The notes under the pieces are model-generated. The model had not been told where the DNA came from, ran no database searches, and worked only from the letters and a program-made list of their open reading frames with translations. A DNA stretch of 64,000 nucleotides, taken from the NCBI GenBank assembly GCA_017534815.1, contig JAFXVS010000018.1, positions 27,768 to 91,767 of the forward strand, given 5' to 3'. Below, one piece after another: positions 755 through 15,209 of the stretch. The first letter of the stretch is position 1. Every line of letters begins with the position of its first letter. The position numbers and the translations under genes were made by a program. Origin of the DNA: Bacteroidaceae bacterium (GTDB taxonomy: Bacteria; Bacteroidota; Bacteroidia; Bacteroidales; Bacteroidaceae).

Positions 755-1588
755 ATGAATAACGGATTTAAGGTTATAACCCTCTGTGGCAGCACCCGTT
801 TCAAAGATGAATTTCTTGAAGCGCAAAAGCGTCTGACACTTGAAGGTAATATTGTTATTTCCGTGGGACTGTTTGGTCATTCTGGAGATGATGAGGTATG
901 GACAGAGGGCGTGAAAGACATGTTGGATCGTCAACATTTGGCAAAGATAGATTTGGCCGATGAAATTTTTGTCGTTAATGTTGGTGGCTATATTGGTGAT
1001 AGCACAAGGCGAGAAATCGCTTATGCAGAAATCAAAGGCAAGTCTCTCGTATATCTTGAAAGATGCAGGAAACAATGTCTTTATAAAAATTATGCTGCAC
1101 TCCGTGAACTCCACGATGCAGGAAGAATCTCCGATGAGGATTTTGAACAGGCTGGACGTGTTTTTGATGAAAAACGCAAAATTGCTATTGCTGAATATAA
1201 TGCCTGTACAGGCCCTTGGCCCTATCAGTGGAAAGACATTGATACTGTTGTTTGTGGAATACTACAACAGAATGGTCTTGCTTCTATTGACTACCATGAC
1301 CTAGAATATCTCTATGAAGCTGATAATGTTTCAGAAATTCGCATAAAGGGAAAGGGCTCTAACGATAAAGAGCAGCTTCAAAGCATCATTGATACTATCC
1401 GAAATGATTATATGAATCTGTTGCAATTATCAAAGAAATTAGCAATAACCCTTATTGGCTCGTCCAATTCGACTACCCATATTGAAAAGATAGCTGATTG
1501 CCTGACAGGTAAAGATATCGTTTGGCAAATTAAGACACTCACTGCTGAAGAAACAGAAATAAGATTATCAATAGTAACAATTCAATAA
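755..1588 (+). CDS. Fusion protein: N-terminal nucleoside 2-deoxyribosyltransferase/DNPH1(Rcl)-like domain plus C-terminal FtsZ-C-terminal-like domain
   Basis: 277-aa ORF. KVITLCGSTRF..., ...KIDLADEIFVVNVGGYIGDSTRREIAYA..GKSLVYL fits the NDT/Rcl pattern. The C-terminal half resembles FtsZ T7 loop plus C-domain (see findings). The coding call is firm; the function is inferred. Confidence 0.6.
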   Translation: MNNGFKVITLCGSTRFKDEFLEAQKRLTLEGNIVISVGLFGHSGDDEVWTEGVKDMLDRQHLAKIDLADEIFVVNVGGYIGDSTRREIAYAEIKGKSLVYLERCRKQCLYKNYAALRELHDAGRISDEDFEQAGRVFDEKRKIAIAEYNACTGPWPYQWKDIDTVVCGILQQNGLASIDYHDLEYLYEADNVSEIRIKGKGSNDKEQLQSIIDTIRNDYMNLLQLSKKLAITLIGSSNSTTHIEKIADCLTGKDIVWQIKTLTAEETEIRLSIVTIQ

Positions 1589-1602
1589 CAAAGAGAAAGA
1601 AT

Positions 1603-2781
1603 ATGAGTAACGATAAAAGTCAAATTCAAGAAAAACTAGCAAGTTGGGCAAAGGAAACGGTTAATGTGTATAATCCAATTGCAGATACTTTAAATAAGGA
1701 GAGTTCAAATGAAAAATGGGGCTATTATACACAAACCCCATTGTCACTTGTTTCCCAATCACCAGATTTACTTATATTAGGAATTAATCCAGGATCCGGT
1801 GGCGGTAAAGATAATATGACGGGAGAAGAATTACTTAAAGGTAATCCTTGCTTCGAAGGCCTGAATAAAGAAGGTGTTGTCAAAGTGATGAGAGAGGTAC
1901 GAGATGATAATAAGAAAAGGAATGGATGGGCTTTGTGGCATAGATTGAACGATATGCTTGAAAAATCTCCAAATAATAAGAACCTACTAAAATACTTCGA
2001 AAATTTTGTCCTGTCTAATATGATTTTCTTTGGAACAGATCATGAAAACGAGATACCTAAGATAGATAAAGAAAAGTGTGCAAAGCAAACCTTAAAATTG
2101 ATAGATTATTTAGAGCCAAAAGTGGTCATATTACTTGGCAAACAAAGTAGAGATCTATATAATCGTATAACTGATAAGGGGAAATTAGAAGTTTTAGTAC
2201 CAAACTCCATTTATCATTGTATGTATGACAAAAGTCATATCCTTGCAATTAAACATACTGCATATCATTATTCATATGATGAGATAGTGGTTGTGGGGAA
2301 GACAATTGGATTTGTTCTGGATCATCACGAAGAAGCCATAAATAAGGAAACGATTTTTTCATCTTATATAAAAAATGATATTATTCGTTTTGAAGAGGGG
2401 CAAAAGACGAAGCAGTCTAAGAAAAAATTAAAAGTGAATAGTGCCAAAGTTATAAAATTATTAACTTCGAATCCGTGTTTTCAACTTACTATGGTTAAGA
2501 AAGATCATTATTACCTTTCTGAAAACTTGGTTATTCGAATTACAAATGCAGATAATGGATATTTGGCTATTCGTCACAAAAACTATGATGTTCAATACCC
2601 AAACTCTAAATATGTGTTTACTGAAGAATACAGAAATTTTCTTAATACAGAGAAACAAGGATGGAAATGTGACAATTATTGGCTAGCTAAAAAACACATT
2701 AATGATTTTGGAAATGATGAAAATGAAATCGTAAAAAACATTATTTCAGAATTAAACGACATAATAGAATTTGTAAGATAA
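1603..2781 (+). CDS. Uracil-DNA glycosylase-superfamily-like protein (GINPG motif) with uncharacterised C-terminal extension
   Basis: 392-aa ORF starting 14 nt after the previous stop. LLILGINPGSGGG (nt 1780-1794) matches motif A of Mug/TDG/SMUG-type UDGs. The last ~130 aa have no family I recognise. Confidence 0.5.
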   Translation: MSNDKSQIQEKLASWAKETVNVYNPIADTLNKESSNEKWGYYTQTPLSLVSQSPDLLILGINPGSGGGKDNMTGEELLKGNPCFEGLNKEGVVKVMREVRDDNKKRNGWALWHRLNDMLEKSPNNKNLLKYFENFVLSNMIFFGTDHENEIPKIDKEKCAKQTLKLIDYLEPKVVILLGKQSRDLYNRITDKGKLEVLVPNSIYHCMYDKSHILAIKHTAYHYSYDEIVVVGKTIGFVLDHHEEAINKETIFSSYIKNDIIRFEEGQKTKQSKKKLKVNSAKVIKLLTSNPCFQLTMVKKDHYYLSENLVIRITNADNGYLAIRHKNYDVQYPNSKYVFTEEYRNFLNTEKQGWKCDNYWLAKKHINDFGNDENEIVKNIISELNDIIEFVR

Positions 2782-2789
2782 TAAAAATT

Positions 2790-3134
2790 ATGGCACAAAT
2801 GATTTTGCACGGAAGGGAGTTAATCCGTATAAACGTTCCAAAGAATTATATCGAGTATTCAACGAATGATGGTCGAACTTGGCACACTCGATATACAGGT
2901 ACCCATGCTGGTACATTTATTGATCTCATAGATTATGGATCTGAGATTATTGCGTGTACCTCGAAAGGTATTTTCACTTCTAGTAATGGTGGAGGGAATT
3001 GGCATAGCAGATACTCTGGCAATCTCGCAGGCTCTTTCATTCAGCTAGTGTCTGATGGACGGAATTTGTTGGCAACAACATCTAAAGGTTTGTATTATTC
3101 AAACAATGGAGGTCTTAATTGGCATCGCAAGTAG
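2790..3134 (+). CDS. Small Asp-box (BNR-like) repeat protein, 2.75 copies of a 40-aa repeat
   Basis: STNDGRTW (aa 24-31), SSNGGGNW (64-71) and SNNGGLNW (104-111) sit at an exact 40-aa period, and the WH.RY.G..AG.FI.L...G...A.TSKG context repeats. Starts 8 nt after the upstream stop. Confidence 0.6.
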   Translation: MAQMILHGRELIRINVPKNYIEYSTNDGRTWHTRYTGTHAGTFIDLIDYGSEIIACTSKGIFTSSNGGGNWHSRYSGNLAGSFIQLVSDGRNLLATTSKGLYYSNNGGLNWHRK

Positions 3135-3167
3135 AAAAAACAATTCTTTCATCTACATTTCAAATAA

Positions 3168-3198
3168 CCTCTGCCTCAAAACGGCAGGGGTTTCTTTT
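3168..3198 (+). terminator. Hairpin + T-run terminator of the 755-3134 operon
   Basis: cctctgcc (3168-3175) / ggcagggg (3183-3190), an 8-bp stem with one G.U pair, followed by tttctttt. Confidence 0.6.
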
Positions 3199-3205
3199 AT
3201 CTTTG
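3198..3205 (+). promoter_or_regulatory. -7 promoter box TATCTTTG
   Basis: Consensus TAnnTTTG 29 nt upstream of ATG 3234. Part of the duplicated 49-nt module 3165-3213. Confidence 0.5.
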
Positions 3206-3233: not shown

Positions 3234-4253
3234 ATGACTTTCAAAGAATTACTCGATAGCGTTTCCTTTGAAGAGGTGGCTCCAGAGTTAGTACGAATGT
3301 ACCCAAAAGTAGAGTATGATTTGCGATGGTATAAGATTCATTTTGATATGCTGCGCCTGATGACCCCAAAGCTTCATGATGATACAAATTCTGGTGTATG
3401 CAATATCTCCATGAGTAAATGGGACGAAGATTGTCAACCCCATCTAGATGCTTACCCGATGGAAGGCGATTGGTGGGGGCATTCGTTGACGAAGGAACTT
3501 GTTATTGCCCCAGAAGTCAAGGCTACCAATGCTGAGATTGCAGCTTGCTGCCTCTGGCACACATCTTTTTATGGTTATGTGGATGAACAACAGGAGGAAT
3601 ATTTTAGATTTGATGAAAGTGATATAGATATCAAAGACAGATGGGATGACTACATATATAATAAGATACGAGCAGAGAAATGCTTCTCCATCATTCGTAG
3701 AAATGGTGGCTACATCCCATCCGTTAAAGAGTTGACACCTGCGAAGAAACAAGAATTGACGAACAAAGCCAAGGAGTATTTTTGGTGCATAAGTCAATCG
3801 ATGAACAAGACAAAAAGGAAGAGGCTGTTTCGCAGGGAGTTTATGGCTCACTACTATGAGCGTATGATGAACATCAGCCGTTTCATCGTTCAGGCAATTC
3901 CTGCTTTGAAAGACGAGAGAAGCAATATGAGTATAGAGCAGCTTTGTGGATTGTTCTATTCTGACTTGTTCAGTTCAGAGGTGTTCACGTCGTATGCTGA
4001 TGAAAAGACAAGTGGGGCCAGGTATCTTTGTGAACTTTTTGAGAAATATGGTATAGAACCTAGATTAGACAGAATAGTAGTGGTGTTGACAACTGGGGAA
4101 TACCATCAAGAACTAACAGAAGATGAAGATTATTTGTGCAGACTTCTTGTTGGCGATTGCAAATCGAGTGACATCCTCTTGGCTACAGATCCTTCATTAG
4201 GCAGGCAAGTACGTATCAACTATGCTACTTTTAATTCAGAAAAGACATTATAA
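3234..4253 (+). CDS. Uncharacterised protein; N-terminal ~115 aa paralogous to the interrupted ORF 269-673
   Basis: Long ORF. I prefer ATG 3234 (MTFKELL...) over the track GTG 3210, because GTG 3210 lies only 4 nt past the -7 box. Confidence 0.6.
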   Translation: MTFKELLDSVSFEEVAPELVRMYPKVEYDLRWYKIHFDMLRLMTPKLHDDTNSGVCNISMSKWDEDCQPHLDAYPMEGDWWGHSLTKELVIAPEVKATNAEIAACCLWHTSFYGYVDEQQEEYFRFDESDIDIKDRWDDYIYNKIRAEKCFSIIRRNGGYIPSVKELTPAKKQELTNKAKEYFWCISQSMNKTKRKRLFRREFMAHYYERMMNISRFIVQAIPALKDERSNMSIEQLCGLFYSDLFSSEVFTSYADEKTSGARYLCELFEKYGIEPRLDRIVVVLTTGEYHQELTEDEDYLCRLLVGDCKSSDILLATDPSLGRQVRINYATFNSEKTL

Positions 4254-4280
4254 ATACCTATTCTCATGAATCCATTTTAA

Positions 4281-4311
4281 CCTCTGCCACAAAACGGCGG
4301 AGGTTTCTTTT
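4281..4311 (+). terminator. Hairpin + T-run terminator (second copy of the module)
   Basis: cctctgcc (4281-4288) / ggcggagg (4296-4303), then tttctttt. Confidence 0.6.
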
Positions 4312-4318
4312 ATCTTTG
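4311..4318 (+). promoter_or_regulatory. -7 promoter box TATCTTTG
   Basis: Consensus match 26 nt upstream of ATG 4344. Part of duplicated module 4278-4326. Confidence 0.5.
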
Positions 4319-4343: not shown

Positions 4344-4652
4344 ATGAAATGGAATAAGAAAGTGAATGATTCTGTTGATTATATAAATGGTTATCCGATT
4401 AGTGAAGTCTGGGGGACATACCACTATTTGGCGCGAAAGATTGCACCAAGGTTGAAAGCATTCAAGGCCCTTAAAAAGCATGGATGGCCAGCTGATTTTG
4501 AGGACCAGGAAGATTGGAATGAAGTTATTCAGAAGATGATCGATGCATTCGAGTTGCTGAAGCAAATTACAACGTATAGCGAGGAAGAAGAGCAGACTAT
4601 TGAGGAAGGGTTGGATTTATTTTGCAAATATTTTAGAAATTTATGGGATTAA
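4344..4652 (+). CDS. Hypothetical small protein (102 aa)
   Basis: ORF with ATG 4344 (MKWNKKVN...). The track GTG 4323 falls right after the promoter box. No family recognised. Confidence 0.5.
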   Translation: MKWNKKVNDSVDYINGYPISEVWGTYHYLARKIAPRLKAFKALKKHGWPADFEDQEDWNEVIQKMIDAFELLKQITTYSEEEEQTIEEGLDLFCKYFRNLWD

Positions 4653-5352: not shown

Positions 5353-5410
5353 TTGACTCGAGTCAAATCATCGATTGGCTCGAGCCAAATGGCAAAATGA
5401 CTCGAGCCAA
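5353..5410. repeat. Three 14-bp palindromes TTGRCTCGAGYCAA at exact 22-bp spacing
   Basis: TTGACTCGAGTCAA 5353-5366 (perfect palindrome), TTGGCTCGAGCCAA 5375-5388 (perfect), ATGACTCGAGCCAA 5397-5410 (hybrid). Confidence 0.8.
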
Positions 5411-6538: not shown

Positions 6539-7153
6539 TCACTTGATGCCCTCTTCCGTCACCTGGGCTCGGACTCGACTCAGGGTCTCGGGCGTCATCT
6601 GCAGGAAGGAGGCGACATTGTGGAGCGGGGCGCGGCGGATGATTTCGGGATTTTCCCTCATGGTGCGCACATATCGTTCCTTGGCCGTCTCGAAGCGGAG
6701 CACGTCAGCCTTGCGCTGGGAGATGATGAGCGCCCGCTCGTAGAACTTGAAGATGAGCTGGCAGAGTTCGAACGAATGCCGGGCAATGGCCTCCATGGCA
6801 TCGCGGGGAATGGCGAAGATCACGCTGGGCTCGATGGTGGAGGCAACGATGCGGGAGGGTTCGCGCAGGAAGTAACTCTCGATGCAGACGACCATGTCGC
6901 CCTCGTGACTGATGTGCTCCGTTACAGTCGCATGATTTTTCTTGTACGTCTGGAGCACCATCCCGCGATCCAAATAATACATGCTGTTGCACACCTCGCC
7001 CTCAGCCACCAGCTTGACGCCGCGCAGCACCTTGGTGGGCACGAGAATGCTAGCGAAGGCATGCAGCGCCTCCACGCTCAGGGTCACACCGTAGATGCGG
7101 CAAATTTCCCTTGCCACATCACGTCGCCGGTCGTTCAGATTCAATGTTGCCAT
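6539..7153 (-). CDS. Crp/Fnr-family transcriptional regulator
   Basis: 204 aa. Cyclic-nucleotide-binding-like N-domain (..GEVCNSMYYLDRGMV..) and a C-terminal HTH region (..PLHNVASFLQMTPETLSRVR..). Confidence 0.8.
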   Translation of the reverse strand: MATLNLNDRRRDVAREICRIYGVTLSVEALHAFASILVPTKVLRGVKLVAEGEVCNSMYYLDRGMVLQTYKKNHATVTEHISHEGDMVVCIESYFLREPSRIVASTIEPSVIFAIPRDAMEAIARHSFELCQLIFKFYERALIISQRKADVLRFETAKERYVRTMRENPEIIRRAPLHNVASFLQMTPETLSRVRAQVTEEGIK

Positions 7154-7189: not shown

Positions 7190-7861
7190 TTAGAGATTGT
7201 AGTTCCGTTCGCCAAAGATTTTGCTGCCCACTCGGACCATCGTGCTGCCATGTTCCTGGGCAATGAGATAGTCGCCGCTCATGCCCATCGACAGCTCCTT
7301 GAAAGCGGGCTCGTCAACGAAGAAATGATTCTTCAGCACATCAAAGAGTTGTGCCACTGACTCAAACTCTCTGCCAATCCTCGCCTCATCATCGGTGTTG
7401 GTCGCCATCGCCATCAATCCCACAATGCGCACATGACTCATCGTCCGCCATTCACCCGTGCTCAACATCTCCACCACCTCCTCAGGCGTGAATCCGAATT
7501 TAGTCTCTTCGGCTGCCACATGTATCTGCAGAAGCACGTCGATGACGCGTCCGCACTTCTGTCCCTGCTTATCAATCTCCTTCATCAATTTGACAGAATC
7601 CATTGAATGTATGAGACTTACGAACGGTGCCATATACTTCACTTTGTTCGTCTGAAGATGCCCGATGAAGTGCCATTCGATGTCATCAGGCAAAACCGGC
7701 TGCTTGGCCACGAGTTCCTGCACGTGGCTTTCGGCAAACACGCGCTGTCCCGCATCGTACGCCTCACGAATGGCCTCAACCGGATGAAATTTTGACACCG
7801 CCACCAACGACACGCCTGGTTTCAGCGTATCCTTGACCTGCTGCAAATTTTCTGCTATCAT
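7190..7861 (-). CDS. yggS: YggS-family pyridoxal-phosphate homeostasis protein
   Basis: ..LVAVSKFHPVEAIREAYDAGQRVFAESHVQEL..HFIGHLQTNKVKY.. The ORF extends to 7891, but MIAENLQQVK (7861) matches the usual family N-terminus. Confidence 0.8.
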   Translation of the reverse strand: MIAENLQQVKDTLKPGVSLVAVSKFHPVEAIREAYDAGQRVFAESHVQELVAKQPVLPDDIEWHFIGHLQTNKVKYMAPFVSLIHSMDSVKLMKEIDKQGQKCGRVIDVLLQIHVAAEETKFGFTPEEVVEMLSTGEWRTMSHVRIVGLMAMATNTDDEARIGREFESVAQLFDVLKNHFFVDEPAFKELSMGMSGDYLIAQEHGSTMVRVGSKIFGERNYNL

Positions 7862-11125: not shown

Positions 11126-14100
11126 ATGAAATTTACAGAAAGAGCAAAACTGAACCTCTCAGATGTGAATAAGGAGGTTCTGGAGCAGTGGAAACAGGAA
11201 GACATGTTTCACAAGAGTATTGAGGAACGCGAAGGCTGTCCTCAATTCATCTTTTTTGAAGGGCCACCCTCTGCCAACGGACATCCGGGCATTCACCACG
11301 TGATGGGCAGAACGATTAAAGATACATTCCTCCGCTATAAGACGATGCAGGGCTTCCAAGTAAAGCGCAAGGCTGGTTGGGACACCCACGGTCTGCCTGT
11401 AGAATTGTCTGTGGAGAAGTCTTTGGGCATCACGAAAGAGGACATCGGCAAGAAAATCAGTGTGGATGACTACAACGATGCCTGTCGCAAGAACGTGATG
11501 ATGTACACCAACGAGTGGACAGAACTCACCGATAAGATGGGTTACTGGGTCGATTTGGAGCACCCTTACATCACCTATGATAACAAATATATCGAGACGC
11601 TATGGTACCTCTTGAAGCAGCTCTATAACAAGGGACTACTCTACAAGGGTTATACCATTCAACCCTATTCGCCAGCAGCAGGTACGGGTCTTTCGAGCCA
11701 CGAGCTGAACCAGCCTGGCTGCTATCGCGATGTGAAGGACACGACGGTGACGGCGCAATTTAAGGTGAAAGACATTTTAGAGGGGTTAGTAGGAGTTGAC
11801 AATCTTCCTGTTTACATTCTCGCTTGGACAACGACACCTTGGACATTGCCTTCCAACACTGCACTTTGTGTAGGTCCAAAGATTGACTATATAGCCATCA
11901 AAGGCAAAAACCCATATACAGAAGAGGAAGCCATATACATCATGGCAGAAGCTCGACTATCAGCCTACTTCCAGTATGGCGAAGATGAAAAGCCCGAGAT
12001 TCTCTGGAAGGGTCAGGGCACTGATCTCGTGGGTCTGCACTACGAGCAGTTGATGCCTTGGGTGAAGCCCTGTGCTTTAGAAGGCGATAAGGTGGTGGTG
12101 AAGGAAGATGAAGCTTTCCGTGTCATTCCTGGCGACTATGTGACAACCGAAGATGGTACAGGTATTGTACATATCGCTCCGACTTTTGGTGCTGACGATG
12201 CCAAAGTTGCTAAGGATGCTGGCATTCCATCGCTTTTCATCATCGACAAGGCTGGCGACACGCGCCCAATGGTCGATTTTACGGGTAAATATTTCGTAAA
12301 GGATGACATGAACGAAGAGTTTATAAGTCTTTGTGTAAATGAAAGTTATTGGAAGCATAGCGGCAACTTCGTCAAGAACGCTTATGACCCCAAATACAAT
12401 CAGGGTGGCAAGTATGATGAGAAGGCCGCCAACAAGGATATGGACTTGAATGTGGTGCTGTGTGTAGAGATGAAAGAAGAGGGAACAGCATTCAAAATTG
12501 AGAAGCACATTCACAACTATCCTCATTGCTGGCGCACAGACAAACCCGTGCTCTACTACCCGCTCGACTCTTGGTTCATCAAATCGACGGCGAAAAAAGA
12601 CCGCATGTTTGAGTTGAATCAGACCATCCAGTGGAAGCCCGAATCAACTGGTACGGGACGCTTCGGCAAGTGGCTGGAGAATCTGAATGATTGGAATCTG
12701 TCCCGCTCCCGCTATTGGGGTACGCCATTGCCCATTTGGCGCAATCGTGACACCCACGAGGAAATCTGTATCGGCAGCGTCGAAGAGCTCTACAACGAGA
12801 TAGAAAAGGCTGTAGAAGCAGGCGTGATGGTTTCAAATCCATTGAAGGACAAGGGCTTTATTCCTGGCGACATGAGTCAGGAGAACTACGATAAGATAGA
12901 CCTGCACCGTCCTTATGTGGACGACATCAAGCTGGTGTCGGGAAAGGGCAATGTGCTCACTCGCGAACTTGACCTCATTGACGTTTGGTTCGACTCAGGT
13001 GCCATGCCTTACGCTCAAGTGCACTATCCATTTGAGAACAAGGATCTGATCGACAAGGGCATCGCTTATCCCGCAGACTTCATTGCCGAGGGTGTGGATC
13101 AGACACGCGGTTGGTTCTTTACCCTACATGCCATCGCCACAATGGTGTTTGACTCAGTGGCATATAAAGCTGTGATATCCAATGGCCTCGTGCTCGACAA
13201 GAACGGCATCAAGATGTCTAAGCGTCTGGGTAACGTCATCAACCCATTCGAGTGCATCGGAACTTATGGTGCTGACGCTGTGCGTTGGTACATGATCACC
13301 AACTCCTCACCTTGGGACAACCTCTCCTTCGACCCCGAGGGTGTAAAGGAAGTGACGAGCCAGTTCTTTATCAAGTTGCAGCAAGCATATTCGTTCTTCA
13401 CGATGTATGCCAATGTGGATGGCTTCGAGTACAAGGAGGCTGATATTGCCTATGCCGACCGTCCTGACTTTGACCGTTGGTTACTATCCGAACTCAATAC
13501 ATTAGTAAAGAATGTACTGGCCTACTTCGACGACTACGACCCGACCCCTGCAGGTCGTCTCATCCAATCGTTCGTCATCGACAATCTCTCCAACTGGTAC
13601 ATCCGTCTGAACAAGCCACGCTTCTGGGGTGGCGAGATGACCACCGACAAACTCTCGGCCTATCAGACCCTTTATACTTGCCTCGACACGTTGAGCCGAC
13701 TCATCGCACCAATTGCTCCGTTCTATGCCGATCAACTCTTCCGCGACCTCAACAGCGCTACCGGCAAGGATTCCGCAAAGAGCGTCCACTTGGCCCAATT
13801 CCCGACCTTCAACGAGGCTTACATCGACTCCGAACTGGAGGTTGCGATGGAGTCTGCCATGAAGGTGACCTCAATGGGACTCTCTATCCGTAAAAAGGTA
13901 AAGATTCCTGTAATTCAGGCCTTGCAGTCGATTGCCATTCCCGACACAGACGCCCTCTTCAGCGGTCGCATCGAGCGAATGAAGGACATCATCATGAAGG
14001 AGGTGAACGTGAAGGAGCTCCAGCTGATGGACGGCAAGATGCTCGTGAAGAACGTAAAGTGCAACTTCCGTGTCATGGGCAAGAAGTTCGGTAAGATGAT

Positions 14101-14566
14101 GAAGGCGGTAAGCAACGCCGTGGCAGAGATGTCGCAGGCACAAATCGCCGAACTCGAAGCCAACGGACAGGTTACTCTGCAGGCCGATGGACAGGATGCA
14201 GTGATTGAATTGGCCGACGTGGACATCATGTCTCAGGACATCCCCGGATGGAGCGTTGCTAACGAAGGCACGACGACTGTGGCTCTCGACATCACCATCA
14301 CGCCAGCCTTGAAGAACGAAGGCAACGCCCGCAAAGTCATTAAGCAGATTCAGGGTCTCCGCAAGTCACAAGGCTTCGAAATCACAGACCGCATCCAAGT
14401 CGTCATCACCGAGACCCCTGAGACTAAGGCTGTGCTTGACACCTTCAAAGATAACATTGCTTCACAGGTGCTGGCCAACTCCATCACACTCGGCAACCCT
14501 GAAGGTGAAGCAATTGACTTCGACGACTTCAAGGCAGTCATTTGTGTTGAGAAAGATAGAGATTAG
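11126..14566 (+). CDS. ileS: Isoleucine--tRNA ligase
   Basis: 1146 aa. HIGH-type motif PSANGHPGIHHV, KMSKRLGN, and class-I editing-domain context. Confidence 0.95.
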   Translation: MKFTERAKLNLSDVNKEVLEQWKQEDMFHKSIEEREGCPQFIFFEGPPSANGHPGIHHVMGRTIKDTFLRYKTMQGFQVKRKAGWDTHGLPVELSVEKSLGITKEDIGKKISVDDYNDACRKNVMMYTNEWTELTDKMGYWVDLEHPYITYDNKYIETLWYLLKQLYNKGLLYKGYTIQPYSPAAGTGLSSHELNQPGCYRDVKDTTVTAQFKVKDILEGLVGVDNLPVYILAWTTTPWTLPSNTALCVGPKIDYIAIKGKNPYTEEEAIYIMAEARLSAYFQYGEDEKPEILWKGQGTDLVGLHYEQLMPWVKPCALEGDKVVVKEDEAFRVIPGDYVTTEDGTGIVHIAPTFGADDAKVAKDAGIPSLFIIDKAGDTRPMVDFTGKYFVKDDMNEEFISLCVNESYWKHSGNFVKNAYDPKYNQGGKYDEKAANKDMDLNVVLCVEMKEEGTAFKIEKHIHNYPHCWRTDKPVLYYPLDSWFIKSTAKKDRMFELNQTIQWKPESTGTGRFGKWLENLNDWNLSRSRYWGTPLPIWRNRDTHEEICIGSVEELYNEIEKAVEAGVMVSNPLKDKGFIPGDMSQENYDKIDLHRPYVDDIKLVSGKGNVLTRELDLIDVWFDSGAMPYAQVHYPFENKDLIDKGIAYPADFIAEGVDQTRGWFFTLHAIATMVFDSVAYKAVISNGLVLDKNGIKMSKRLGNVINPFECIGTYGADAVRWYMITNSSPWDNLSFDPEGVKEVTSQFFIKLQQAYSFFTMYANVDGFEYKEADIAYADRPDFDRWLLSELNTLVKNVLAYFDDYDPTPAGRLIQSFVIDNLSNWYIRLNKPRFWGGEMTTDKLSAYQTLYTCLDTLSRLIAPIAPFYADQLFRDLNSATGKDSAKSVHLAQFPTFNEAYIDSELEVAMESAMKVTSMGLSIRKKVKIPVIQALQSIAIPDTDALFSGRIERMKDIIMKEVNVKELQLMDGKMLVKNVKCNFRVMGKKFGKMMKAVSNAVAEMSQAQIAELEANGQVTLQADGQDAVIELADVDIMSQDIPGWSVANEGTTTVALDITITPALKNEGNARKVIKQIQGLRKSQGFEITDRIQVVITETPETKAVLDTFKDNIASQVLANSITLGNPEGEAIDFDDFKAVICVEKDRD

Positions 14567-14585
14567 AAATGAGAGGTAAGAATTT

Positions 14586-15209
14586 ATGACAAGGAAGAAC
14601 AAACATATCCTTTCCATCGCCCTCTTCATGGCCGTTCTTGTCATAGACCAAATTATCAAGGTCTGTGTCAAGACGGGCATGTATCTGGGAGAGCGCATCG
14701 AAATCACCAGCTGGTTCAGTCTCGTTTTCGTCGAGAACAACGGTATGGCATTCGGATGGGAACTCTGGGGAGGCAAACTCTTCCTCACCCTCTTCCGCAT
14801 CGTCGCTGTATGCCTCATCGGATGGTTTATCTACAGCGAGATTCAACGCCGACGACCAACTGGCTATATAGTCTGCCTCACCCTTATCGCGGCAGGAGCG
14901 GCAGGCAACATCATCGACTGCCTCTTCTACGGACTCATCTTCAACAACCCGCCCTTTCCCGAGGTCGCAGACTTTCAACCCTACGGATACGGATACGGAG
15001 AATTCCTTTACGGACGTGTTGTTGACATGTTCTACTTCCCGCTCATCGAATGGGAAATGCCTACATGGATGCCCATCTACTCCGGACAGCACTGCGTCTT
15101 TTTCTCCCCTATCTTCAACTTTGCCGACGCAGCCATCTCCTGCGGCATAGTAGCCCTCCTCATTTTCTACCACAAAATCGTCAGTCGCTACCAGTTCCAC
15201 AAAGATTGA
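14586..15209 (+). CDS. lspA: Lipoprotein signal peptidase (signal peptidase II)
   Basis: ..VENNGMAFGW.. and ..FNFADAAISCG.. motifs, four TM segments, follows ileS. Confidence 0.9.
   Translation: MTRKNKHILSIALFMAVLVIDQIIKVCVKTGMYLGERIEITSWFSLVFVENNGMAFGWELWGGKLFLTLFRIVAVCLIGWFIYSEIQRRRPTGYIVCLTLIAAGAAGNIIDCLFYGLIFNNPPFPEVADFQPYGYGYGEFLYGRVVDMFYFPLIEWEMPTWMPIYSGQHCVFFSPIFNFADAAISCGIVALLIFYHKIVSRYQFHKD

Follow-up and report, generated by a model that had tools for sequence, protein, structure and literature searches.

Putative DUF4406-like and UDG-fold proteins paired in a low-GC multi-cassette island of Prevotella

In a 64,000-nt stretch of a Bacteroidaceae contig (JAFXVS010000018.1; hereafter the window), three adjacent genes, which we call P1, P2 and P3, make up one cassette of a low-GC multi-cassette island of about 9–13 kb that is found across Prevotella. 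P1 begins with a module that, to judge from its relatives, probably belongs to the N-(deoxy)ribosyltransferase clan, and P2 is predicted to have the fold of the uracil-DNA glycosylase (UDG) superfamily. Considering the context in which these genes occur, we propose that the P1–P2(–P3) cassette is an antiviral one that targets nucleotides and DNA bases, to which we assign a probability of roughly 0.45; the statements on folds and architecture are made with considerably greater confidence. The comparisons below draw on 93 related island loci, L001–L013 from exact protein sequence look-ups and L179–L258 from a metagenome scan.

The conserved P1–P2 pair

All three open reading frames (ORFs) lie on the + strand, with gaps of 14 nt between P1 and P2 and 8 nt between P2 and P3, and their coordinates reproduce those of an initial annotation that had been made from the sequence of the window alone:

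720–727, + strand: −7 promoter box TATCTTTG of the Bacteroidota type, 27 nt 5' of the P1 start codon
755–1588, + strand: P1, ORF of 277 aa
1603–2781, + strand: P2, ORF of 392 aa, with an N-terminal helix, a predicted UDG fold at about residues 40–245 and a C-terminal domain, C1, of about 127 aa (nt ~2398–2778), as delimited with Pfam, AlphaFold2 (AF2), Foldseek and alignment
2790–3134, + strand: P3, ORF of 114 aa, or 111 aa with a start at 2799

To find out which genes travel together, we counted the gene that follows P1 in 46 distinct (dereplicated) loci with enough downstream sequence. It was UDG-like by hidden Markov model in 30 of them and a UDG-family variant in a further 8 (together 38/46, 83%); in another 4 it was Nmad2, followed in turn by Nmad3 (Pfam E-values of 2e-39 and 2e-61). 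One protein of 532 aa, P0241, joins the module, the C-terminal part of P1 and a UDG-like domain in a single chain. The co-occurrence of P1 with a UDG-family gene, one of the expectations of the initial annotation, is thus seen across genomes. The architecture of three genes that it had put forward is not what is conserved, P3 lying within four genes of P1 in only 10 of 28 loci; we discarded the idea of a three-gene system, P3 being optional and its usual partner a protein with two transmembrane segments (2TM). Because P3 is facultative and a UDG-family gene adjoins P1, the conserved unit is P1 together with the UDG-family (or Nmad2/3) gene.

P1 is a two-part protein, composed of the module at residues 4–103 (nt 764–1063) and a C-terminal part, P1C, at residues 107–277 (nt 1073–1585). 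Copies of the module share 51–85% identity in pairwise comparisons. Its invariant features are the TLCGST motif, His42, His61, Lys64 and the stretch Y79-x-G-x-S-T-x-x-E87. The last residue of this stretch, Glu87, sits in the sequence GDSTRREIAYA; it had been singled out as the candidate nucleophile, and it is indeed present in P1 and invariant in the homologues, being kept even in the module copies of Caulobacter phages, an Anabaena phage and an archaeal virus.

DUF4406 (PF14359) matches 8 of 14 divergent module members over profile positions 10–91 of 91, one with 27.5 bits (gathering cut-off 22) and the others with 15–19.5 bits, and does not match P1 of the window. DUF4406 and Nuc_deoxyrib_tr are placed by Pfam in the same clan, CL0498 (Nribosyltransf). 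The families PF05014 and PF15891, with which the initial annotation had suggested comparing P1, match neither P1 (Pfam, E ≤ 1) nor any of the 14 divergent members (E ≤ 10). Since the relatives match the clan member DUF4406 and not PF05014 or PF15891, P1 is to be regarded as DUF4406-like rather than as a member of the DNPH1/nucleoside 2-deoxyribosyltransferase (NDT) family, and by way of these relatives its N-terminus is classed as a putative DUF4406-like member of the N-(deoxy)ribosyltransferase clan.

When the module profile was aligned with human DNPH1 using hhalign, an E-value of 0.085 was obtained over 34 columns, which cover the CGS-R loop only; the numbering of the DNPH1 sequence used here agrees with PMC10603095. 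DNPH1 has a catalytic triad of Tyr, Asp and a Glu nucleophile, the latter being E104 (PMC10603095). Judging from the motif alignment, the positions of Tyr24 and Asp80 of DNPH1 would correspond to Thr9 and His61 in P1. Of the original description of P1 as NDT/DNPH1-like, the clan, reached through DUF4406, and the invariant Glu87 stand, but there is no PF05014 or PF15891 match and the rest of the triad is not evidently conserved.

P1C has no match in Pfam or the PDB, and no relatives of it were detected outside this island family; comparison of P1C with the C0 domain described below, using hhalign, gave no relation. Relative to the related island L001, the ratio of nonsynonymous to synonymous substitution rates (dN/dS) amounts to 0.075 in the module and to 0.18 in P1C.

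The Pfam UDG profile (PF03167) scores 20.1 bits on P2, below its cut-off of 24.3, with an E-value of 7e-4; many homologues have a precomputed PF03167 match, and several score above the cut-off, P0245 with 27.1 bits. An AF2 model of P2 built from 40 homologues has a mean predicted local distance difference test score (pLDDT) of 88. Its top 50 PDB matches in Foldseek are all family 4 UDG, SMUG1, TDG, MUG or UdgX, with probabilities of 0.96–1.0 and TM-scores, normalised to the target, of 0.5–0.63, and the matches are equally close to UDG families 2, 3 and 4. The GINPG motif of P2 is encoded at nt 1780–1794 within LLILGINPGSGGG and contains Asn62; I61-N62-P63-G64 is invariant in 40 homologues that are 48–92% identical. 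Also invariant is K217-H218-T219-A220, which follows the last core strand of the model (residues 211–216), in the position of motif B. Motif B of the MUG/TDG and SMUG1 families is a loop of the (N/M/H)PS type (HPS/NPS), unlike KHTAY.

Neither phmmer nor a profile hmmsearch of all PDB sequences retrieved a UDG chain for P2, so that P2 would be a distant member of the superfamily, without assignment to family 2 or 3. The UDG-type GINPG motif A with Asn62 that had been noted earlier agrees with the fold model. The accompanying assignment to the family 2/3 type is supported as regards the superfamily fold and the MUG/TDG-type GINPG, but not as regards membership in family 2 at the sequence level. 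Searches of P2 against PHROGs and NCBIfam gave no match. The C-terminal stretch of about 130 aa is not conserved; relatives carry unrelated types in its place, the C1 type of the window contrasting with a diverse set that we call C0, and these types are without catalytic-looking invariant residues. A profile of the C0 domain retrieved no more than 20 proteins, all of them short and none with a new architecture.

P3 matches the Pfam family BNR (PF02012) with 29 bits, over a cut-off of 27, in two stretches. It contains three Asn-variant Asp-boxes, S-x-N-x-G-x-(T/N)-W, spaced by 40 aa. This period is exact, as had been claimed, but the copies are only 50% identical (20/40), so that an exact repeat it is not. 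Similarly, the Asp-box assignment is upheld by the BNR score, but the mini-propeller that had been envisaged would not be a complete one: with only three repeats, P3 does not amount to a full propeller by itself. The gene before P3 is of the UDG family in 29 of 32 cases. The gene after it encodes a 2TM coiled-coil protein with a C-terminal C0-type domain in 16 of the 22 copies with a readable next gene, and the five copies of P3 that lie directly before the DUF6557 gene all come from contigs of the window's own lineage. P3 is therefore a facultative component that belongs to a BNR + 2TM cassette, of which the membrane partner is missing in the lineage of the window. An immunity array of a type VI secretion system or polymorphic toxin was considered and rejected, its sole support being a weak Tli3 match of P3 (E 0.013).

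The cassette has transcription signals of its own. TAnnTTTG is a promoter element of Bacteroides, and the copy that had been recognised 5' of P1 is present as TATCTTTG. The motif TANNTTTG is over-represented in the window (49 matches, where 27 ± 5 would be expected); its intergenic + strand copies in the island lie at 256, 720, 3198 and 4311, and there is none 5' of P2 or P3. The hairpin and T-run that were said to close the unit were confirmed as a terminator with a 10-bp stem at 3166–3192 followed by UCUUUU (ΔG −16.3 kcal/mol, z = −5.0). No terminator was found between P1 and either the AAA ATPase gene or the DUF6557-like gene upstream, so that transcripts might enter P1 from there and the unit could comprise more than three genes. 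The single three-gene transcription unit of the initial annotation thus has its own box and terminator, but may in fact be longer. Scans of the window for Rfam families and tRNA genes gave no matches, and there are no tRNA genes in L009, a contig of the sister set L008–L013, either.

The surrounding island

The cassette shares its low G+C content with its surroundings. G+C amounts to 35.1% at 755–3134, where about 33% had been given before, versus 50.2% outside the island, and the low-GC region, rather than being confined to the three genes, begins ahead of the window and continues to about nt 5400. Within it lie, besides P1–P3, the following features:

27–248, + strand: AAA+ ATPase gene truncated by the start of the window, of which only the C-terminal end is included, in the position of a 545-aa PF00004 gene of L009–L013
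269–673, + strand: DUF6557-like gene, here F2, of about 134 codons, recognised by DUF6557 matches and preceded by TATTTTTG at 256–263
3166–3205, + strand: first junction element (copy scan), consisting of the 10-bp hairpin, the T-run and a TATCTTTG box for the next unit
3234–4253, + strand: P4, 339 aa, with an N-terminal DUF6557 (Pfam, 36.3 bits) and about 200 uncharacterised aa; the next transcription unit
4279–4318, + strand: second copy of the junction element (copy scan)
4344–4652, + strand: P5, 102 aa, which forms the last unit of the island with P6
4656–5315, + strand: P6, 219 aa, the conserved end of the island
5355–5408, + strand: three GACTCGAGTC-like 10-nt palindromes in 22-nt phasing, at the right island boundary

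The related islands share a gene order. They start with a WYL/WCX regulator, a DEDDh (RNase T-like) exonuclease, optionally RhuM-Fic, Fic or an AAA ATPase, and a DUF6557-like gene; P1, the UDG-family gene or Nmad2/3 and, optionally, BNR + 2TM occupy the middle. Next come an optional DnaB_C, TM protein or YgjP-like peptidase and then the DUF6557-containing P4, and the islands end with an optional truncated DNA polymerase III alpha (Pol III alpha) or DnaB, P5, P6 and an optional RhuM-Fic. The WYL-WCX regulator comes first in most related islands, and the island of the window has no WYL gene. An island complete with the WYL and exonuclease genes is found, for instance, in Prevotella sp. khp1 (CP071890.1, region 1,250,700–1,271,872). 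Among the genes of related islands, PADLOC recognises WYL, RhuM-Fic as PDC-S23 (3e-134) or PDC-S05, and the exonuclease as PDC-S48/DEDDh.

In different genomes, the islands have different housekeeping genes on either side. That of the window is bounded by the housekeeping genes PAP2 and EamA, and no phage structural genes were found within ±10 kb of it; location within an intact prophage, which the initial annotation had named as an outcome that would speak against its proposal, was rejected on these grounds. Nor does a simple direct repeat flank the island in the manner of att sites, and palindrome arrays alone were found at its ends. The right array consists of GACTCGAGTC, GGCTCGAGCC and GACTCGAGCC, and the left one, at 6593–6646 of L009, of three copies of GAGTTAACTC with the same 22-nt phasing. 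Such arrays occur in the lineage of the window only and are absent from other islands; they could be operators or boundary sites.

At every boundary between cassettes of the island family stands a conserved 40-nt junction element, AACCTCTGCCcCAAAACGGCaGgGGTTTCTTTTATCTTTGCA, in which a terminator hairpin is combined with a −7 box. There are 98 copies of it in the 93 island loci and practically none elsewhere, and its stem is kept through U-A/U·G alternation. The element may serve as a recombination anchor or as a binding site for a regulator. When 755–3134 is compared with the homologous genes of L001 (9162–11533), the synonymous divergence (dS) is 1.15 for P1, 0.12 for P2 and 0.44 for P3. This roughly ten-fold spread between adjacent genes points to recent, independent exchange of cassettes between islands, while dN/dS values of 0.07–0.34 indicate that the genes are under purifying selection.

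Upstream of P1, the ATPase part of the AAA protein is IetA-like in PADLOC (E 1.8e-28; full gene at 7857–9494 of L009), and no IetS-like protease partner was seen. F2, which immediately precedes P1 in most loci with a readable upstream gene, contains a single in-frame TGA at 413–415 where the homologues have Trp (tblastn: one frame, 57–66% identity); the alternatives here are a nonsense mutation that has become fixed and a site of read-through, and F2 is likewise split into short ORFs in the sister contigs L008–L013.

Downstream, the position of P4 is kept in all islands. After or around the DUF6557 gene of related islands we observed truncated Pol III alpha-like proteins (400–427 aa or about 805 aa), DnaB (about 500 aa) and a protein comprising the DnaB C-terminal part only (217 aa), encoded at 13491–14774 and 11260–11913 of L004, 13690–14952 of L001, 7181–9598 of L227 and 7115–8638 of L006; candidate roles for these are replication, decoy or fragment. 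PHROG 11543 matches the C-terminus of P5 alone (E 4e-10), and P5 shares a C-terminal ...RN(L/W)WD motif with an unrelated small island protein (L004, 8224–8658). A 211-aa paralogue of P6 (L009, 7125–7760) opens the island in the sister contigs, and a stretch of 131 nt is 70% identical to P6.

A proposed antiviral role and its alternatives

Under the antiviral reading, P2 would flip out and excise a non-canonical, phage-modified base from invading DNA, with its variable C-terminal domain setting the specificity or binding a partner. P1 would cleave or exchange the N-glycosidic bond of the matching free (deoxy)nucleotide, so that the modified base would be attacked in the pool as well as in DNA, as it is by DNPH1 and SMUG1 of eukaryotes. 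P3 would derive from a BNR + 2TM cassette in its own right, the membrane partner having been lost in this lineage. A bolder version, which we regard as unlikely, would make the island an integrase-less, integron-like immune super-locus of Prevotella, in which the 40-nt junctions anchor cassette swaps, P1 and P2 mount a two-level attack on phage-modified nucleotides as a prokaryotic counterpart of DNPH1 and SMUG1, and P2 is retargeted through its C-terminal domain.

Several observations weigh against an antiviral role or against the fold assignments on which it builds. P1 of the window matches no family in Pfam (E ≤ 1), NCBIfam, PHROG or PADLOC. Sequence and profile searches of the PDB sequences with the P1 module, P1C and P2 gave nothing significant, and the profile searches found no NDT, DNPH1 or UDG chain. 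The AF2 model of P1, computed from 31 close homologues, has a pLDDT of 61; since the model is poor, fold matches are uninformative, and those returned by Foldseek (Cap5/SAVED, NMDA receptor and others, with TM ~0.24 and a root-mean-square deviation of ~18 Å) are not meaningful. The check for known defence systems that had been suggested initially was made with PADLOC-DB v2, and 0 families matched P1, P2 or P3 at E ≤ 1, so that the cassette is no known PADLOC system. In the lineage of the window, the island looks eroded, being without the WYL and exonuclease genes, with the TGA in F2 and with P3 deprived of its 2TM partner. Furthermore, the DnaB, truncated Pol III alpha and exonuclease genes of related islands make them look like a replication module, and the P1 module is mainly a phage gene, so that the cassette could serve the nucleotide metabolism of an element itself.

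This last point leads to the first alternative, a module for the replication and nucleotide metabolism of a cryptic mobile element or of an island derived from a phage, with P1 as a pool enzyme and P2 as an accessory of repair or replication. The P1 module forms 7,599 clusters at 50% identity; it occurs in metagenome-assembled genomes of Bacteroidales, Clostridia, Chloroflexi, Spirochaetes and Actinobacteria, on at least 283 IMG/VR viral contigs, including jumbo phages, and in the Caulobacter phages CcrPW and CcrColossus, Anabaena phage A-1(L), a 735-kb phage and an archaeal virus. Few unannotated proteins of phages and mobile elements that we have met are as conserved and as widespread as this one (loci L014–L173 and L259–L261). 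In scanned contigs of viruses and genomes, the module usually makes up a whole protein of 102–110 aa, carried by phages and by bacteria of the gut or rumen; most of the best 150 representatives of the 50%-identity clusters carry an N- or C-terminal extension. The module was seen joined, at either end, to many unrelated domains, namely NADAR, YjeF_N, GNAT, DUF1643, UDG and DUF7666.

The company that the standalone module keeps in phages speaks for this alternative: dNMP kinase, thymidylate synthase, ribonucleotide reductase and dUTPase genes lie near it in CcrPW, a gene of the RNase T-type exonuclease/polymerase adjoins it in A-1(L), and its IMG/VR neighbours include NrdD, NrdG, dUTPase, dATP/dGTP diphosphohydrolase, NDT, single-stranded-DNA-binding protein and ligase. 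The DEDDh exonuclease, DnaB and Pol III alpha-like genes of related islands, and the differing chromosomal sites of the islands, would fit it as well. No integrase, capsid, terminase or relaxase gene was found in or beside the islands, however, which are flanked by housekeeping genes. Truncated forms of the Pol III alpha and DnaB genes are frequent, and defence islands, unlike replication modules, typically feature such elements as a hypervariable C-terminal domain, 2TM proteins, RhuM-Fic/PDC-S23 and a YgjP-like peptidase. On balance, a replication or metabolism module appears unlikely to us, though less so than the alternatives that follow.

The occurrence of Nmad2 and Nmad3 ('nucleotide modification associated domains') in the slot of the UDG-family gene suggests a second alternative, in which the island encodes a base-modification or base-exchange system that marks the DNA of its own cell, the UDG-fold protein opening the glycosidic bond in DNA and the NDT-clan enzyme, or Nmad2/Nmad3 in other islands, making or inserting a non-canonical base. 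In the archaeal virus, the module lies beside a gene for a queuine tRNA-guanine transglycosylase/DpdA-like transglycosylase, and the fusion of P1 to a UDG-like domain would also suit such a system; the covalent deoxyribosyl-Glu intermediate of the NDT clan permits base exchange, as in the DNPH1 mechanism (PMC10603095). On the other hand, the island contains no gene recognisable as a cognate restriction enzyme or a modification-dependent nuclease, and the variable C-terminal domain of P2 fits the recognition of targets in an arms race better than it fits self-marking. A UDG fold that inserts bases would be without precedent, for we know of no system in which this occurs. We consider self-marking improbable.

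The fusions of the module to NADAR, YjeF_N and GNAT bring to mind a third possibility, an abortive-infection module based on NAD+ or ADP-ribose, with P1 as a NAD+-consuming effector or signal generator and P2 as a DNA-sensing partner. NDT-like effectors of retron Ec86 are reported to deplete NAD+ (reviewed in PMC13276650), macro-domain-like sequences were noted by eye among the phage neighbours, and there is a weak similarity to SLOG/LOG proteins, seen as LDcluster4 in 2 of the 14 divergent module members and, once, as the best PDB sequence match of the module (LOG protein 1ydh, E 0.08). These similarities are not significant, however, the NADAR, YjeF_N and GNAT fusions are rare, with a single example of each in 42 scanned proteins, and the phage neighbourhoods concern mostly dNTP rather than NAD+ metabolism. 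An NAD+-based role for the cassette seems improbable to us as well.

Finally, the signs of erosion listed above (the in-frame stop in the DUF6557-like gene, the absence of the WYL and exonuclease genes and of the 2TM partner of P3) might mean that the cassette in this genome is a decaying remnant without current function, but this is hard to reconcile with intact P1, P2 and P3, a P1 without differences among 16 contigs of different samples, dN/dS values of 0.11–0.34 relative to the related island and an intact promoter box and terminator, and we think it improbable too.

If the antiviral reading is true, glycosylase defence as described for Brig1 and Brig2 in 2024–2025 would be extended to a coordinated attack on the nucleotide pool and on DNA, and the swappable C-terminal domain of P2 would add a route for retargeting. 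The analysis also exposes an abundant protein of about 104 aa of phages and mobile elements, the copy of which in the window is recognised by no curated model. The repeated junction element might account for the shuffling of defence cassettes in Prevotella, a genus that is dominant in gut and rumen and has few tractable phage–host systems.

Comparison with known systems

Defence that acts through glycosylases or on nucleotides, located in a variable island, is already known; what is new here is the architecture. Neither the searchable literature nor the PADLOC models describe a pair of DUF4406-like and UDG-fold proteins, the C0/C1 domains or the junction element.

The nearest functional parallel is offered by Brig1 and Brig2, which are validated antiviral DNA glycosylases of the UDG family (PMC11078745; 10.1101/2025.10.29.685425), with Brig2 homologues reported in Bacteroidetes (10.1101/2025.10.29.685425; PMC11078745). 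They have in common with P2 a UDG fold, a location in A/T-rich mobile or defence regions and a proposed action on phage-modified bases. Brig1 and Brig2 are reported to have been tested as single genes, whereas P2 has a hypervariable C-terminal domain and is paired with, or fused to, a protein of the NDT clan. What is established between them is the shared superfamily; the best PDB fold matches of P2 are family 4 UDG, SMUG1 and TDG, and no Brig entry is found among its top 50 PDB fold matches.

Compared with MUG/TDG (family 2) and SMUG1 (family 3), P2 displays the same predicted fold and an identical GINPG motif A with its Asn. It differs from them in having no PDB sequence match, KHTAY at the position of motif B, an extra N-terminal helix and the C-terminal domain of about 130 aa. 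In a similar manner, P1 shares with DNPH1 (Rcl) and the NDTs a βαβ Rossmann-like pattern and a C-G-S-x-R loop after β1 (Y24-F-C-G-S-I-R30 in DNPH1), and its E87 would be the counterpart of E104 of DNPH1 (PMC10603095), as an invariant Glu at a like position in a G-x-S-T-x-x-E helix. Unlike DNPH1, the P1 module is only about 104 aa long and has invariant residues of its own, His42, His61 and Lys64.

Nucleotide- and base-processing enzymes are also a feature of units found with DefensePredictor. Among these (PMC13092281), a validated E. coli defence unit, 'NTTI' in the supplementary table, combines Nmad2 with a 5-hydroxymethyluracil (5-hmU) kinase, and units with NMAD, UDG, MazG or dUTPase are predicted in addition. 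The resemblance to the present cassette extends to Nmad2, which fills the slot of P2 in sister islands; the gene sets are different, the hosts are E. coli, and none of the units in the text and tables consulted combines a DUF4406-like protein, a UDG-fold protein and a variable C-terminal domain.

At the level of the whole island, the parallels are with defence islands headed by WYL regulators of the BrxR/CapW type and with integron-like arrays. Like these, most of the related islands have a WYL gene in first place and contain variable low-GC cassettes together with the PADLOC candidates PDC-S23, PDC-S05 and PDC-S48. Unlike integrons, they have neither an integrase nor attC sites, and their cassettes are instead parted by the 40-nt terminator–promoter junctions.

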